A stretch of DNA of 64,000 nt from an uncultured Albidiferax sp. GTDB taxonomy: Bacteria > Pseudomonadota > Gammaproteobacteria > Burkholderiales > Burkholderiaceae_C. Where the stretch lies: contig CAUPPH010000001.1 of assembly GCA_963513125.1 (NCBI GenBank), positions 386,532-450,531 of the forward strand, written 5' to 3'. This document shows, in pieces, positions 12,138 through 17,184 of this stretch; the first letter of the stretch is position 1, and the number at the start of each line of letters is the position of its first letter. A program made the position numbers and the translations under genes. A model generated the notes under the pieces. That model did not search any database, was not told the DNA's origin, and was given only the letters and a program-made list of their open reading frames with translations.

Positions 12138-12258
12138 ATTTTGAACTATGAGGGCAGTGCCGCCTAGCATGACACTTACCTTTTATTGGTGCAGTTGATG
12201 TTTAAATAAAAAAGAACTATCATTCACCAGGGGTGGAGGAAACCATCATGACTAAACC

Positions 12259-12543
12259 ATGCAACTACTTGGCCTCATCAAGCTCGACGATTTCAAGCGC
12301 ACACACGCTGATGCACGTGGGCCACTTGACGCTTGGCGCATTGAAACCGAGCAGGCCCGATGGACCGGCCCGCAAGATGTCAGGAACCGATACCCTAGCG
12401 CCAGCTTTCTAGCGGACAACAGAGTGATTTTTAACATCAAAGGCAACACCTACCGATTAGTCATCAAAGTCAAATACCAAAACGGATTGATCTTGATCGA
12501 GTGGGTTGGCACACATGCCGAGTACGACAAGCAGAAGTTCTAA
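12259..12543 (+). CDS. higB: HigB-family (RelE-fold) toxin
   Basis: W..PQDVR..YPSAS....NRVIFNIKGN.YRLV......WVGTHAEYD signature. Confidence 0.9.
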   Translation: MQLLGLIKLDDFKRTHADARGPLDAWRIETEQARWTGPQDVRNRYPSASFLADNRVIFNIKGNTYRLVIKVKYQNGLILIEWVGTHAEYDKQKF

Positions 12544-12572
12544 GCGGGTCTTGGCAAATGGAAGGAAAAAAT

Positions 12573-13814
12573 ATGAAGCAACAGGTGAAAGTGATCAAAA
12601 CGCAGCGTGATTACGATGCGGCGATCGTTCGTCTGTCAGCTTTGATGGATGAAGACATGGCGCCAGGCTCCAGCAAGGAAGCTGAACTGGAGTTGCTAGC
12701 TTTGGTCATTGAGTCTTACGAGCGCAGCAAAGTTGAACCCGTGGTTCCCGATCCCATTGAAGCGATTTTGTTTCGCATGGACCAGTTGGGACTCAAGAAG
12801 GTGGACATGGTGCCTTACATGGGGTCGCTGCCCAAGGTATCGGAGGTGTTGGCGCGTAAGCGGCCGCTCAACCTCGCAGCGATACGTAAGCTGCATCAGG
12901 GCTTGGGTATCCCGGCGGATGTTCTGCTGACCGCAACCGATGATGCGGTTGACCTGTCGGAGGAACTCCCCTACGACAAAGACAAGTTCCCCATCAAGGA
13001 AATGGTCAAACGCGGCTACTTCGAGGGCTTCCGGGGCACACTTCGAGAAGCCCGCGAGTGCAGCGAAGAATTGATCCGCTCCTTCATGCGCGGCTTCAAC
13101 GTAAACCCAGTTCAACCAGCACGACTACGTGCGCCAATGCACCAGAGCGGCAGCAGACTGATGGACGACTATGCCCTGCTAGCTTGGCATGTTGCTGTAC
13201 TCAAAAAGGCTCGCCAAATCAAGTTCAAGTCGGCCTACGTGAAAGGCAGCTTGACCGATGAACGCCTGAAAGAATTGGCACGCCTGTCTCGCTTCGAGCA
13301 AGGACCCCGTCTGGCTCAAGAGTTCTTGGCCGACATGGGCATCGCCCTGGTGTTCGAGAACCATTTCAACAAGACCTATCTCGATGGTGCTGCCATGTTC
13401 GATGGAGATCGACCGGTGGTAGCGTTGACATTGCGACACAACCGGCTCGATAACTTTTGGTTCGCCTTAATGCACGAGTTGGTGCACGTGCAGAAGCATT
13501 TACGTCCTGATAACTCCTTCATTGCCGACAACCTTGAAGACAAGATTCATCAGCAGTCCCAGGAGGAACGCGAGGCCGACGACGGTGCCCGAGAAATTCT
13601 GGTCCCACAAGCCGAATGGTTGGAGTCAGACTTAGGCGTTTCTCCCACGATGGATGCCGCAATAGCGTTGGCTGACAAGCTCCGCATCCATCCCACCATC
13701 GTGGCTGGGCGCGTGCGTTTTGAATCTGGCAACTGGCGCCTGCTCAGCAGCATCAAGGCTGAGGTTCGCTGCCAGTTTCTCGATCAACTTGAGGAGCCGG
13801 CGCAACCCAGTTGA
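12573..13814 (+). CDS. higA: HigA antitoxin fused to an ImmA/IrrE-family Zn metallopeptidase
   Basis: Start reassigned to MKQQVKVIKT; N-terminal HigA (YE...PDPIEAI.FRM, SEVL.RKRPLN) and C-terminal FWFALMHELVH HExxH with EREAD downstream. Confidence 0.88.
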   Translation: MKQQVKVIKTQRDYDAAIVRLSALMDEDMAPGSSKEAELELLALVIESYERSKVEPVVPDPIEAILFRMDQLGLKKVDMVPYMGSLPKVSEVLARKRPLNLAAIRKLHQGLGIPADVLLTATDDAVDLSEELPYDKDKFPIKEMVKRGYFEGFRGTLREARECSEELIRSFMRGFNVNPVQPARLRAPMHQSGSRLMDDYALLAWHVAVLKKARQIKFKSAYVKGSLTDERLKELARLSRFEQGPRLAQEFLADMGIALVFENHFNKTYLDGAAMFDGDRPVVALTLRHNRLDNFWFALMHELVHVQKHLRPDNSFIADNLEDKIHQQSQEEREADDGAREILVPQAEWLESDLGVSPTMDAAIALADKLRIHPTIVAGRVRFESGNWRLLSSIKAEVRCQFLDQLEEPAQPS

Positions 13815-13819
13815 TCAGC

Positions 13820-13857
13820 AAAGAAAAAAGCCCTGGAGTGCTCGAACACTCAAGGGC
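13820..13857 (-). terminator. Intrinsic terminator oriented for a minus-strand transcript
   Basis: Stem GCCCTGGAGTG/CACTCAAGGGC (13830-13857, one mismatch) with an A-tract at 13820-13829 that reads as a U-tract on the minus strand. Confidence 0.7.
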
Positions 13858-13922
13858 CTTTGGTGAGGTGAATAGGGGTCTACCAAAAAACCACCCATGC
13901 ACAACACGTCTTGGAGAAGACG
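13820..13922 (-). ncRNA. Candidate ~100-nt small RNA
   Basis: Extended -10-like TGATAAGAT (13927-13935, minus strand), 5' hairpin CGTCTT/AAGACG (13907-13922) and a U-tailed terminator; no minus-strand protein gene nearby needs this terminator. Confidence 0.4.
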
Positions 13923-13991
13923 GCGGATCTTATCAGTTCGCAGTGCACGGGCATAGATGAAAACCCCTCCACTCTTCATAAAGGAGTTGGC

Positions 13992-14114
13992 ATGGCCTAC
14001 ACCCGTTGGAAGAGCGTTTTTGTGCGGGCATACGTCCGCTTCCGGTTTGGACGCCGGGAGCATGTTTGCAAACACTGGCGCTCACATCCCGGTCAGATGG
14101 AACTATTCGTCTGA
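13992..14114 (+). CDS. Basic/aromatic 40-aa microprotein MAYTRWKSVFVRAYVRFRFGRREHVCKHWRSHPGQMELFV
   Basis: Strong AAGGAG SD 5 nt before ATG; the ORF track over-extends it to a TTG at 13911. Confidence 0.65.
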   Translation: MAYTRWKSVFVRAYVRFRFGRREHVCKHWRSHPGQMELFV

Positions 14115-14187
14115 CCATCGATGGCAGAGGCCTTGTTCGCAAGGTATCTGCCACCTTCCTGCACTTGAACTTTGAAAGATATCCATC

Positions 14188-14340
14188 ATGGCAACCAAGA
14201 CCCCCAATGAGCAAACATCTGCTCGCGTCGCCTCTGCAGCATCCAAGCTATTGAGCAACCCCAAGACCCCGACCGCAGTGAGGTCGGTAGCGGCTTCGGC
14301 ACTGACCCAACGGCCTAGTGGCAAGCCAAAGGGTAAGTAA
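14188..14340 (+). CDS. Basic 50-aa microprotein MATKTPNEQTSARVASAASKLLSNPKTPTAVRSVAASALTQRPSGKPKGK
   Basis: Open ATG..TAA frame missed by the ORF track (<60 aa), followed by an intrinsic terminator; resembles recurrent small hypothetical proteins of mobile elements (from memory, unverified). Confidence 0.6.
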   Translation: MATKTPNEQTSARVASAASKLLSNPKTPTAVRSVAASALTQRPSGKPKGK

Positions 14341-14363
14341 CTTCACTGCTGCCCGGTTGTTCG

Positions 14364-14393
14364 TGAGCCCGCTTCATGCGGGCTCATTTATTT
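14364..14393 (+). terminator. Intrinsic terminator after the microprotein pair
   Basis: TGAGCCCGC-TTCAT-GCGGGCTCA 9-bp stem followed by TTTATTT. Confidence 0.75.
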
Positions 14394-14473
14394 GCCCGTA
14401 CCCAAGACAATTTTGACGACAGATCATCATGGCGCTTCCCGCCTTCCGTCGCGGTAACTGCAACACCCAACCG

Positions 14474-15679
14474 TCAACCCGTTGAGCTTCGCCCCACCTT
14501 CCCCTTCCCAAACACATGCCCCCGCAACCGCGCCAAGAGCTTCTCCTTCTGCCCCTCCAAAATCTGGCTGCCCTCCACCAGCGCAGGCCAGGTGGCGTAG
14601 GCCTGGGCGACCGTATCGCGGACCAGGCGGGTGCAGGGTTGTTCGGCGATGCCTACGCGGTTGCAGAAGGCGCGCAGGGTGCGGGGGTTGAGGGTTCGGC
14701 CTAGCTCGGGCTCGGTGCCTTTGCCGCCGTCATTGCGGTACAGCGCCAGCGCGCTGCCCTGGCCGCTGTAGTAGGCAGACCAGGCGACGATGTCAAAGGC
14801 AGGGGACAGCACCGGGGTGTGGCTCTCGGGGTAGAGCAGGCAGAAGTTTTTCAGGTGCGCGTCATAGTTGCCCATGAGCTCGTTGATGGTGACCAGGCGC
14901 AGCAGTTCGTGTACGGCGCTCAGGCCCAGGCTGTCGGGGTAACGCAGCATCAAACCGGCCATGGCGGCGTAGGTGGCGCCGGTGTATTTGTTGCGCGGGT
15001 CCACGCCCAGCGCCTGGGCGAAGTCTTCGCAGTGGATACGTTTGGCGCCATCGCGGTCGAAGCGGGTCACGGCCAAAAAGTTGCTGCTGCCGCCCAGGGT
15101 GTAGCCGTGGGCAAAGTCCAGCTTGTCCAGCGGCACCAGCTTGTGTTCGCACACGTTGGCCCCGGCGGCCTGGGCCATGGACAGGCTGCGGTGTTCCAGC
15201 TCGGGCAGCTTGGCGCGGTCTACCTGGGGCAGCTTGCCGATGATGCGGGTTACGCCAGACCGCTTGCGGGCCACGTAACGGCCGCCCTGGGCGATCAGGC
15301 CCACCTTGGGCTGCATGCCAGAGATCGACACGCCCAGGGGCAGCGGGTCGGCGGTGACCGACATTTCCAGGGCATCGTTGTCTTGCGTGACCAGCCGGGC
15401 CAGGGCCTGGCGGTCCAGGTGGGCCGGTAGCGCCTTGACTGCGCCGGGCAGGTCCAGGCCGCAGGCGGCAAACGGGGCGAAGTGGTCGCCTTCGCGGCAG
15501 CCGCGCTCTTGCGCCAGCTGGGTGCGGAACACGCCCTCGGGCAGCATGTTCTGGAAGAAGTCGGGCAGACGGCCATCCGCGCCATTGAACACCGGCGCGG
15601 CAACGTCTTTCCACAGCGATGCCTGCTGGGCCGGGCCGCGGGCGCGCATGCTGACCGACAAAATCTCTTGCGCGGTCAT
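14474..15679 (-). CDS. Orphan HipA-like Ser/Thr kinase, N-terminus apparently shortened
   Basis: FFQNMLPEG (HipA-N), SISGMQPK P-loop, DAHLKNF and SPAFDI motifs; in-frame TAA four codons upstream of ATG; no hipB adjacent. Confidence 0.82.
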   Translation of the reverse strand: MTAQEILSVSMRARGPAQQASLWKDVAAPVFNGADGRLPDFFQNMLPEGVFRTQLAQERGCREGDHFAPFAACGLDLPGAVKALPAHLDRQALARLVTQDNDALEMSVTADPLPLGVSISGMQPKVGLIAQGGRYVARKRSGVTRIIGKLPQVDRAKLPELEHRSLSMAQAAGANVCEHKLVPLDKLDFAHGYTLGGSSNFLAVTRFDRDGAKRIHCEDFAQALGVDPRNKYTGATYAAMAGLMLRYPDSLGLSAVHELLRLVTINELMGNYDAHLKNFCLLYPESHTPVLSPAFDIVAWSAYYSGQGSALALYRNDGGKGTEPELGRTLNPRTLRAFCNRVGIAEQPCTRLVRDTVAQAYATWPALVEGSQILEGQKEKLLARLRGHVFGKGKVGRSSTG

Positions 15680-15760: not shown

Positions 15761-16678
15761 TCAAGCCACCGAGGCCATCGCCGCCCGCAGCACCTGGGCC
15801 GACTGCTCCAGCGCCGCACGCTCTTGCGCATCCATGGCGGGCTCCAGCACCTGCACCGCGCCCTGGGCGCTGACGATGGTGGGGAGAGACAAGGCCACGC
15901 CCAACAGGCCCAGCGCGCCGGTTTGCACACGGGTGACGGTGAGCACCCGGCGCTCGTCGCGCAGCATGCCGTGCAGCAAATGCGCGGTGACCAGGCCGAT
16001 GGCATGGTTGGTGGAGCCCTTGCGCTGGATGATCTCGTAGGCGGCGCGGCGCACCTGGTGGGCGATGTGCTCCTCGTCGGCAGGTTGCCAGCCCGCCCAG
16101 CTGCGCAGGGGCACGCCGCCCACTTCCGCGCTGGACCACAGCACCACTTCCGAGTCGCCATGCTCGCCCACCAGCTGCGCGTGGATGGAGCGCGGGTCCA
16201 GCGCCAGCCGCTGGCCCAGGATCTGGCGCAGCCGTGCGGTATCCAGCATGGTGCCGGTGCCGATGACGCGCTCGGGCGGCAGGCCGGAAGCCTGGGTGAA
16301 GTCAAACACCAGCACGTCGATGGGGTTGCTGACGATCACCACAATGCCCTGGTAACCGCGCAGTTGCTGGGCGATGCCGCGCAGGATGCCCAGGTTTTCT
16401 TTCAGCAAATCCAGCCGCGACTGGCCGGGCGCGCCGCCTTTACCCGCTGTGATGACGATGGCCTGGGTGTCCAGCATCTCGGCCAGCGACCCGGCCCGCA
16501 CCTGGGCCGACGGGTAAAAGGCTGCGCCGTGCGCCAGGTCCATGGCCTCGCCCTCGGCCAGGCCGTCGCGCGCGTCGAACAGCAGCACCTCTTGCGCCGC
16601 CCCCGCCTGCAGCACCGAAATCGCCACGCTGGCCCCGACCCAGCCGGTGCCGATGATGCCAATAGAAGGTGTGCGCAT
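15761..16678 (-). CDS. L-lactate/malate dehydrogenase superfamily 2-hydroxyacid dehydrogenase
   Basis: Start reassigned to MRTPSIGIIG; GTGWVG, EGEAMDL.HG, SNPID, GTGTMLDTAR and GEHGDS motifs. Confidence 0.88.
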   Translation of the reverse strand: MRTPSIGIIGTGWVGASVAISVLQAGAAQEVLLFDARDGLAEGEAMDLAHGAAFYPSAQVRAGSLAEMLDTQAIVITAGKGGAPGQSRLDLLKENLGILRGIAQQLRGYQGIVVIVSNPIDVLVFDFTQASGLPPERVIGTGTMLDTARLRQILGQRLALDPRSIHAQLVGEHGDSEVVLWSSAEVGGVPLRSWAGWQPADEEHIAHQVRRAAYEIIQRKGSTNHAIGLVTAHLLHGMLRDERRVLTVTRVQTGALGLLGVALSLPTIVSAQGAVQVLEPAMDAQERAALEQSAQVLRAAMASVA

Positions 16679-16746
16679 GGGGAGTCCTCTGTTTGAAAGG
16701 CCCAGCCTACACCGGGTGTGCGACAAGCGTCTGTGCGCTAGCGCAA

Positions 16747-17184
16747 CTAGCGCCCGGACGGCCAGCGGTAGCCCAGCACCGAAGCCAGCGGGTAGCTGTT
16801 TTCGCACACGCAGTCCAACTGGTTGCCGCCCAGCAGCAGCACCTGGTCGCTCTCGGTGCGCAGGTAAAAGCCCACGTGGCCGGTCCAGCCGGTGGGGTTG
16901 TTGCGGGTCAGCACCACGATGCAGCCGGGCACGGGCGCGTCTAGCGGCTGGCCCCAGTCCAGCCAGGAGCGGGCCAGGGCCGAGCCGGTGCCGAAGATGC
17001 CCACCTGGCCCAGCGTCCAGTTCACGAAGGACGAGCACCAGGCGGCCTTGTCGTCATAGCCCGCGATATTGGTGCCCGCGTGGTAGGCGGTGATGCGCGG
17101 GTTGCTCTGGCCGGGGGGCGCGGTGCGCACGCCCTGCTCGCTGGCGGCCACCAGCATCCAGGTGGCGAAAGGCTGGAGCGTCAA
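16747..17184 (-). CDS. TIGR02594-family (CHAP/NlpC-like) putative peptidoglycan amidase
   Basis: AWCSSFVNW (Cys), ARSWL.WG, GHVGFY (His) and LGGNQ motifs; TTG start overlaps the upstream TGA. Confidence 0.8.
   Translation of the reverse strand: MTLQPFATWMLVAASEQGVRTAPPGQSNPRITAYHAGTNIAGYDDKAAWCSSFVNWTLGQVGIFGTGSALARSWLDWGQPLDAPVPGCIVVLTRNNPTGWTGHVGFYLRTESDQVLLLGGNQLDCVCENSYPLASVLGYRWPSGR

Follow-up and report, generated by a model that had tools for sequence, protein, structure and literature searches.

The minus strand of the window, the whole stretch of 64,000 nucleotides analysed here, carries between a higB-higA operon and the microprotein gene orf40 an apparently genuine gene for an RNA of about 100 nt (13820..13924, minus strand, 3' end in a U-tail) that belongs to no family described so far. 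Its most probable role, which we propose with moderate confidence, is that of a constitutive cis-antisense RNA resembling a type I antitoxin that would keep orf40 and a second microprotein gene, orf50, silent at basal transcription; transcription, pairing, repression and toxicity are all points of inference.

Genomic setting and anatomy of the predicted RNA

The predicted RNA gene is part of a low-GC islet (12150-14400) with a GC content of 0.48-0.57, compared to 0.65-0.70 in the surroundings. A DNA search of the genomes of 60 close relatives gave no match to the islet, which is therefore accessory. Its first genes are higB (12259-12543, plus strand; Pfam HigB_toxin; PADLOC PD-Lambda-2_A, E 1.4e-46), preceded by a plus-strand promoter-like site from a promoter scan (12195-12223), and a gene for a HigA-HTH/M78-peptidase fusion, here called higA (12573-13814, plus strand; Pfam Peptidase_M78; PADLOC PD-Lambda-2_B, E 1.5e-150). 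PADLOC thus recognises in the window both component A (HigB-like) and component B (HigA-HTH plus peptidase) of PD-lambda-2. A gap of 178 nt separates higA from orf40 (13992..14114, plus strand), which encodes a 40-aa microprotein rich in arginine and aromatic residues and has a Shine-Dalgarno (SD) sequence, AAGGAG, at 13981-13986. The second conserved microprotein gene, orf50, follows on the same strand (14188..14340), and a terminator scan places a plus-strand terminator behind it (14363-14387).

The RNA gene lies in the gap and is read leftward; its features are given here in the direction of the minus strand. An extended -10 element, TGATAAGAT (TG, one base, TAAGAT), is located at 13935 to 13927, with a spacing of 16 nt to the -35 region ATGCCC (13949..13954), which is weak in the window. 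From the position of the -10 element, the 5' end of the RNA was placed at about 13921-13924. The transcript would start with a perfect 6-bp hairpin (CGTCTT/AAGACG, loop CTCC; 13922 to 13907), continue with a central domain that is near-invariant in 46 homologues and has a C-rich loop, ACCCCU, and the single-stranded UUCACCUCACC (13899 to 13859), and end in a terminator stem-loop of 11 positions, ten pairs and one U.C mismatch (13858 to 13830), followed by the T-rich U-tail TTTTTTCTTT (13829 to 13820). The extended -10-like element, the perfect 5' hairpin and the U-tailed leftward terminator had been pointed out in the earlier note from the letters alone, and all three are present as described. 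The minus-strand RNA folds with -43.2 kcal/mol (z = -4.7 against shuffles), and the fold of the plus strand is weaker (-37.1 kcal/mol, z = -3.1). Our generic promoter and terminator scan overlooked both sRNA features because it tolerates no mismatch in a stem and because the -35 region is weak. The element occurs as a single copy in its own genome. We also considered a peptide encoded by the RNA and rejected it: there is no SD sequence, the frame crosses the terminator, and the substitutions are not codon-like.

Conservation and distribution of the element

The same block is found on a Limnohabitans plasmid behind that plasmid's own higB/higA-like pair (75% identity), and seven further loci were detected among 400 genomes from the family to which the window belongs. 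In all of these loci the DNA similarity begins exactly at the A-run that corresponds to the U-tail of the minus strand and extends rightwards into the ORF; their upstream gene cannot be aligned to the window at the DNA level. The earlier note had proposed an sRNA rather than a hairpin that merely terminates higBA, and this distinction holds: within the 9 nt after the stem the mean number of T is 6.7 on the minus strand vs 3.4 on the plus strand (46 homologues), so that a T-run is found on the minus strand only, and the element travels with the ORF and not with higA.

A scan for homologues of orf40 (ORF alignment A2, one genome per species) identified 79 loci in Beta- and Gammaproteobacteria, with Pelomonas, Acidovorax, Zoogloea, Thauera, Pseudomonas, Azotobacter, Xanthomonas and Bordetella among the carriers. 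Of these loci, 47 have an 18-nt core of the non-coding block at a distance of 116-132 nt 5' of the start codon. The covariance model R1, built from 46 distinct copies (alignment A3), gives 106 bits in the window. It reaches 49 bits or more at 56 of the 79 loci with orf40 and at six of the loci found earlier; in all, about 60 bacteria retain promoter, fold and terminator. About 12 more loci have weaker matches at the equivalent place. Without exception, the matches are on the strand opposite to orf40, about 65-170 nt upstream of the ORF start. Even the diverged copies of Xanthomonas and Bordetella keep, as judged by eye, the order TAGAAT, GUC...GAC hairpin, GGUGG...UCACC and terminator with U-tail.

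The family appears to be absent from current libraries. The search of Rfam that the earlier note had suggested as a check returned no family at the gathering threshold; the best hit of an E-value scan of the region was NsiR1 (RF02399) with 24.7 bits vs a gathering score of 39. This match comprises essentially the terminator: shared are a terminator-like hairpin plus U-tail and the word GGUAGA. A scan of ten homologous loci with Rfam 15 at gathering thresholds likewise found no family at the element, and Rfam, Pfam and PADLOC hold no family that matches the sRNA, orf40 or orf50. The element had no match in a search of phage DNA, and a search of complete E. coli genomes likewise returned nothing similar. 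With its patchy distribution the module is horizontally mobile and has spread through Beta- and Gammaproteobacteria. Some homologous cassettes are located within 1-2 kb of SRP RNA or tRNA genes (L059:878-974, L046:381-453, L061:3336-3420), which is consistent with insertion at island hot spots. In several clades the sRNA terminator also has on its immediate left a small hairpin with covarying pairs, e.g. TTGGGTCTGTGCCCAA or CTGGGCTTGTATCCAG (L004:1455-1497 and equivalents in L022, L027 and L036; also L080-L088, left of the U-tail).

Strand-specific conservation of promoter and terminator

The covariation check of homologous intergenic regions, which had likewise been suggested, was performed on 46 distinct homologues and showed that the promoter hexamers, the hairpins and the U-tail are conserved with covariation. 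A minus-strand TAnnnT is present at one and the same site in all 47 distinct upstream regions, 0-3 nt before the start of R1. The extended TG is found in 34 of 47 distinct homologues and a -35 element TTGCnn, mostly TTGCC(C/A/T), in 35 of 47, at a distance of 16-18 nt from the -10 element. Copies with a poor -35 element, the window included, have all kept the extended TG; conversely, most of the 13 copies that lack TG combine a TTGCCC or TTGCGC -35 element with a better -10 element (TATACT, TACACT). To judge from this alignment, the extended TG and the -35 element compensate each other, and real sigma-70 promoters show such compensation. A -10 element with T1, A2 and T6 thus stands throughout at a fixed distance from the predicted start and is in general accompanied by a -35 element or an extended TG, as expected of an sRNA gene.

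The terminator is conserved as a structure. Ten of its 11 stem pairs show compensatory changes, 91% of the cells are paired in the 46 homologues, and the covariation score was reached by none of 500 shuffles. Stem stability is higher on the minus strand in 40 of these homologues (mean -16.4 vs -13.1 kcal/mol). Wobble pairs give a further indication of the strand, as an A.C mismatch on one strand counts as a G.U pair on the opposite one: 37 G.U vs 7 A.C in the terminator and 47 G.U vs 11 A.C in one central helix with three covarying pairs both favour the minus strand. Two mutually exclusive helices fit the central domain about equally well; by eye, the divergent Xanthomonas copies favour the outer UGG(CG)/(CG)CCA helix. 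The core of the 5' hairpin, GUC(U)/(A)GAC, hardly varies, and the one variant with full compensation is ACCT/AGGT in L061. Here the wobbles favour the plus strand (25 A.C vs 6 G.U, mostly from one clade), and on this pattern the plus-strand leader may also use the 5' hairpin. Altogether, a minus-strand transcription unit is supported by the alignment because promoter, terminator, the strand-specific G.U pattern and the U-tail are all conserved.

The microproteins encoded by orf40 and orf50

Members of the orf40 family have a constant length of 39-41 aa and share an invariant C-terminus, HWRSHPGQ (alignment A2). The differences between them fall on codon positions 1, 2 and 3 in a ratio of 546/432/1240, and synonymous vs non-synonymous changes amount to 924:651 in frame and to about 150:1400 in the other frames; by this substitution pattern orf40 is a real gene under purifying selection. 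The 145 protein clusters of the family are all named 'hypothetical' and contain no Pfam domain. An AlphaFold2 model predicts a beta-hairpin for residues 9-30 (pLDDT 85-89) and a short helix; compared to the PDB by Foldseek, the model gave no significant match (best E 4.8). The protein is Arg-rich and predicted to be soluble, with no hydrophobic helix, and in this model it does not look like a classic type I toxin, i.e. a hydrophobic membrane peptide.

Homologues of orf50 directly follow orf40 in 30 loci. The orf50 product, which has no match in Pfam or PADLOC, carries the motif SARVAS..KLLSNP.TP..VKSVAASALTQ, and Pseudomonas loci encode a 96-aa protein in which this motif is repeated. A search of the literature on the peptide motif and on the combination of a peptidase with an antisense RNA revealed nothing specific. 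A shorter relative of orf40 (31 aa, KSVFVRAY.RFR.G..E.VC.H.RS) is present, partly unannotated, on small mobilizable ColE1-like plasmids such as the E. coli plasmid NZ_CP101918.1 (L095:3241-3336) and nine similar Escherichia plasmids of 4.0-4.4 kb; an R1-type RNA is absent upstream of it on the small E. coli plasmids.

The plus-strand transcript and its relation to the sRNA

The earlier note had interpreted the RNA as antisense to the leader or read-through transcript of the downstream microprotein, and the arrangement of the genes bears this out: the RNA gene is situated between the upstream operon and orf40, and any plus-strand transcript that reaches orf40 must therefore cross it and be complementary to the sRNA. 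Like the antitoxin of a type I pair, the predicted RNA is complementary to the mRNA of its small ORF, as the RNA gene is located between orf40 and every possible plus-strand promoter. In the window and its closest relatives the stop codon of higA is only 5 nt away from the U-tail, so that orf40 can be reached only by read-through from the higBA promoter; on this layout the higB-higA operon is the likely source of the plus-strand transcript in the window. When the alignment was inspected by eye, neither the interval from the sRNA promoter to orf40 nor the conserved block itself showed a sigma-70 motif conserved on the plus strand. Promoters of the sigma-70, sigma-54 or ECF type reading rightwards from inside the block were considered and discarded, likewise by eye, as there is no conserved plus-strand TAnnnT and the spacing varies.

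A different arrangement is found in the clade represented by L004. Here the peptidase gene ends about 160 nt earlier and the gap holds a conserved plus-strand promoter, TTGATC-N17-TAGAAT, about 100 nt upstream of the sRNA gene, which places the sRNA inside the 5' leader of orf40. Two TCCC-N5-GGGA palindromes flank this promoter (L004:1340-1410, L022:575-600; also in L005, L027, L033, L036, L019, L034 and L031), and the same palindrome is present about 50 nt upstream of higB; it is absent from the window. The palindrome is likely a shared operator of the HigA-M78 protein, and its position suggests that in this clade transcription of orf40 probably also answers to the HTH-peptidase protein.

Whole-length RNAduplex predictions for sRNA and orf40 mRNA gave over-extended and uninformative duplexes. 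A 14-nt sliding duplex scan of 35 homologues detected no conserved pairing site for the sRNA in the orf40 mRNA outside the overlap. Pairing of the C-rich loop with the SD sequence was checked manually and dismissed, as it comprises just 4-5 bp and is inconsistent across clades. The SD sequence pairs with an upstream CCUC in many single-sequence folds; RNAalifold gives no consensus structure.

Proposed mechanism and alternatives

We assume that the sigma-70 promoter with its weak -35 region and the extended -10 element would drive the RNA constitutively and that this RNA consists of the 5' hairpin, the C-rich central domain and the intrinsic terminator. It would be perfectly complementary to about 100 nt of the orf40 mRNA leader and would pair there, and pairing would either trigger cleavage of the duplex or mask GGUGAGGUGAA, an SD-like element whose exact complement is the invariant UUCACCUCACC of the sRNA. 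Basal read-through would in this way yield no orf40 or orf50 protein. Strong induction of the upstream promoter, presumably upon inactivation of the HTH-peptidase protein, could then outrun the sRNA. The logic would be that of a type I toxin-antitoxin pair such as hok/sok, ldr/rdl or tisB/istR-1.

The near-invariant core exceeds the need of a pure cis-antisense RNA, and this excess in the alignment points to an additional partner, i.e. a trans target, a protein or a function of the plus strand. The main rival explanation rests on the same excess. It takes the sRNA as real and assigns its main job elsewhere: the C-rich loop and the anti-SD-like UUCACCUCACC would act in trans on other mRNAs, or, as a sponge or in a type III-like manner, the RNA would bind one of the module's proteins (HigB, the peptidase or the Arg-rich product of orf40). 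Indeed, the core stays near-invariant across Beta- and Gammaproteobacteria next to flanking proteins of down to about 15% identity, and a cis-antisense RNA needs no such sequence conservation. A hairpin plus U-tail is typical of Hfq-type trans sRNAs, and the orf40 product, being basic and a predicted beta-hairpin, could bind nucleic acid. The RNA is, however, strictly syntenic with orf40 at a fixed distance and in single copy, the duplex scan offered no conserved complementary site in the orf40 mRNA outside the overlap, and the horizontal mobility of the module speaks against conserved chromosomal targets. We consider a principal role in trans or in protein binding unlikely, and cis-antisense action remains the preferred assignment.

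It is less probable still that the block has its function in the plus strand or at the DNA level. In this case the hairpin behind the peptidase gene would serve as an attenuator or for processing, the core would be a leader element of orf40 (a ribosome standby site or an operator), and the minus-strand hexamers would be incidental. It is true that GAGGUG, a strong SD-like sequence, is present in the plus-strand complement of the core, that wobbles in the 5' hairpin are more numerous on the plus strand, that this hairpin, as GTCTT-N4-AAGAC, is a DNA palindrome too, and that the plus strand likewise folds better than shuffles (z -3.1). Yet the invariant TAnnnT and the compensation between TG and -35 element are seen on the minus strand only, as is the T-run after the hairpin, and the ratio of G.U to A.C speaks strongly for the minus strand in terminator and central helix. 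Furthermore, the HTH proteins are too diverse for one common operator, and a two-box promoter is a poor fit, as the distance from core to hairpin varies by 3-5 nt.

That the minus-strand terminator just halts convergent read-through from a hipA-like gene (14474-15679, minus strand), with no separate sRNA, is highly improbable: the hairpin behind hipA (14363-14387) lacks a minus-strand U-tail, which makes read-through conceivable, but this gene, the nearest protein gene on the minus strand, ends about 600 nt from the sRNA terminator with two small plus-strand ORFs in between (as the earlier note had held, no such gene is close), the low-GC islet stops short of it, and homologous loci that have no conserved minus-strand gene after orf40 keep both the terminator and its own promoter.

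Neighbouring genes in homologous loci

The left neighbour of the sRNA-orf40 pair is almost always encoded on the strand of the ORF and is an M78/HExxH peptidase in 46 of 78 loci. In 26 loci it is a HigA-M78 fusion preceded by HigB (PD-lambda-2 A/B type, as in the window) and in 20 loci a stand-alone capP-like M78 peptidase preceded by a capH-like HTH protein; in a few further loci an RmrA-like HTH-M78 fusion and a DUF3368 protein are encoded one gene more to the left. The right-hand neighbours vary in kind and strand, with no conserved minus-strand gene after orf40. Nine loci (L039, L042, L043, L046, L047, L057, L061, L062 and L073) have a left neighbour of 276-293 aa with no HExxH motif and with a weak match to DUF7226. 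This gene is sometimes located on the strand of the sRNA, and the diverged sRNA could represent its 5' leader there.

Comparison with known systems

The predicted cis-antisense arrangement is most easily compared to known type I pairs. With hok/sok and ldr/rdl it has in common a short ORF with a long 5' leader and a constitutive antisense RNA of about 60-100 nt inside this leader with its own promoter and terminator (here predicted), and a mobile, patchily distributed module. Pairing of the SD with an upstream CCUC appears in single-sequence folds. It differs in that the product of the ORF is Arg-rich and predicted to be a soluble beta-hairpin instead of a hydrophobic membrane peptide, that the pair is appended to an HTH/M78-peptidase operon, often with no promoter of its own, and that a second microprotein gene (orf50) follows; there is no relationship in sequence or at the level of Rfam and Pfam. 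In tisB/istR-1 (also zorO/orzO and dinQ/agrB) the sRNA is likewise divergent and starts from just upstream of the small ORF, a repressor cleaved under stress probably controls transcription of the ORF (LexA in tisB/istR-1, an HTH protein with an M78 peptidase in our case), and the sRNA could mask an upstream element that resembles a ribosome standby site (GGUGAGGUGAA here). Pairing of tisB/istR-1 is, however, in trans via a short patch, whereas the complementarity here stems from physical overlap with no patch outside.

The upstream genes link the pair to other systems. According to Vassallo et al. 2022 (PMC9519451), defence by PD-lambda-2 in E. coli requires an additional downstream component, C, which is 'related to a P4 phage antitoxin'. 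HigB and the HigA-peptidase protein of the window match components A and B, whereas the place of component C is taken by the sRNA, orf40 and orf50, and neither orf40 nor orf50 matches a PADLOC model. CapH/CapP (and similarly ImmR/ImmA and DdrO/IrrE) is resembled by the 20 loci in which a capH-like HTH protein and a capP-like M78 peptidase directly precede sRNA-orf40, and also by the operator-like palindromes that the higB promoter and the orf40 leader promoter of one clade have in common. Known switches of this type act on large effector operons (CBASS, ICE or SOS-like genes), and the literature searched describes for them neither an added level of control by an antisense sRNA nor a 40-aa output.

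As a tentative extension, which has a rather low probability, the sRNA, orf40 and orf50 could together form an unrecognised output cassette behind varied HTH/M78-peptidase sensors (PD-lambda-2 A/B, CapH/CapP-like pairs and RmrA-like fusions). A repressor under the control of a peptidase would gate transcription, the sRNA would set the threshold, and the part of the effector, or of the missing 'component C', in abortive infection or a stress response would fall to the basic beta-hairpin protein of 40 aa. If this is true, the cassette would represent a family of type I-like, non-membrane toxins that is coupled to a proteolytic switch.

The pair unites a candidate for a new sRNA family, which Rfam 15 lacks, with a microprotein family that is likewise new and has no entry in Pfam or PADLOC, and both halves of the module were missed by gene callers and family libraries. 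Its recurrent place behind repressor-peptidase modules bears on the A/B core of the anti-phage system PD-lambda-2, the mechanism and third component of which are poorly understood, and suggests that repressor-peptidase switches can drive a very small, RNA-guarded output. One promoter, one RNA of 100 nt and one ORF of 40 aa thus provide a handle on what HTH-M78 systems switch on.

Outside the islet, the HipA-like kinase gene (HipA_C, partial Couple_hipA) is not accompanied by an HTH or hipB ORF directly upstream; the next minus-strand ORF (15761-17038) starts just about 80 nt further. The gene may be an orphan or an N-terminally shortened hipA.
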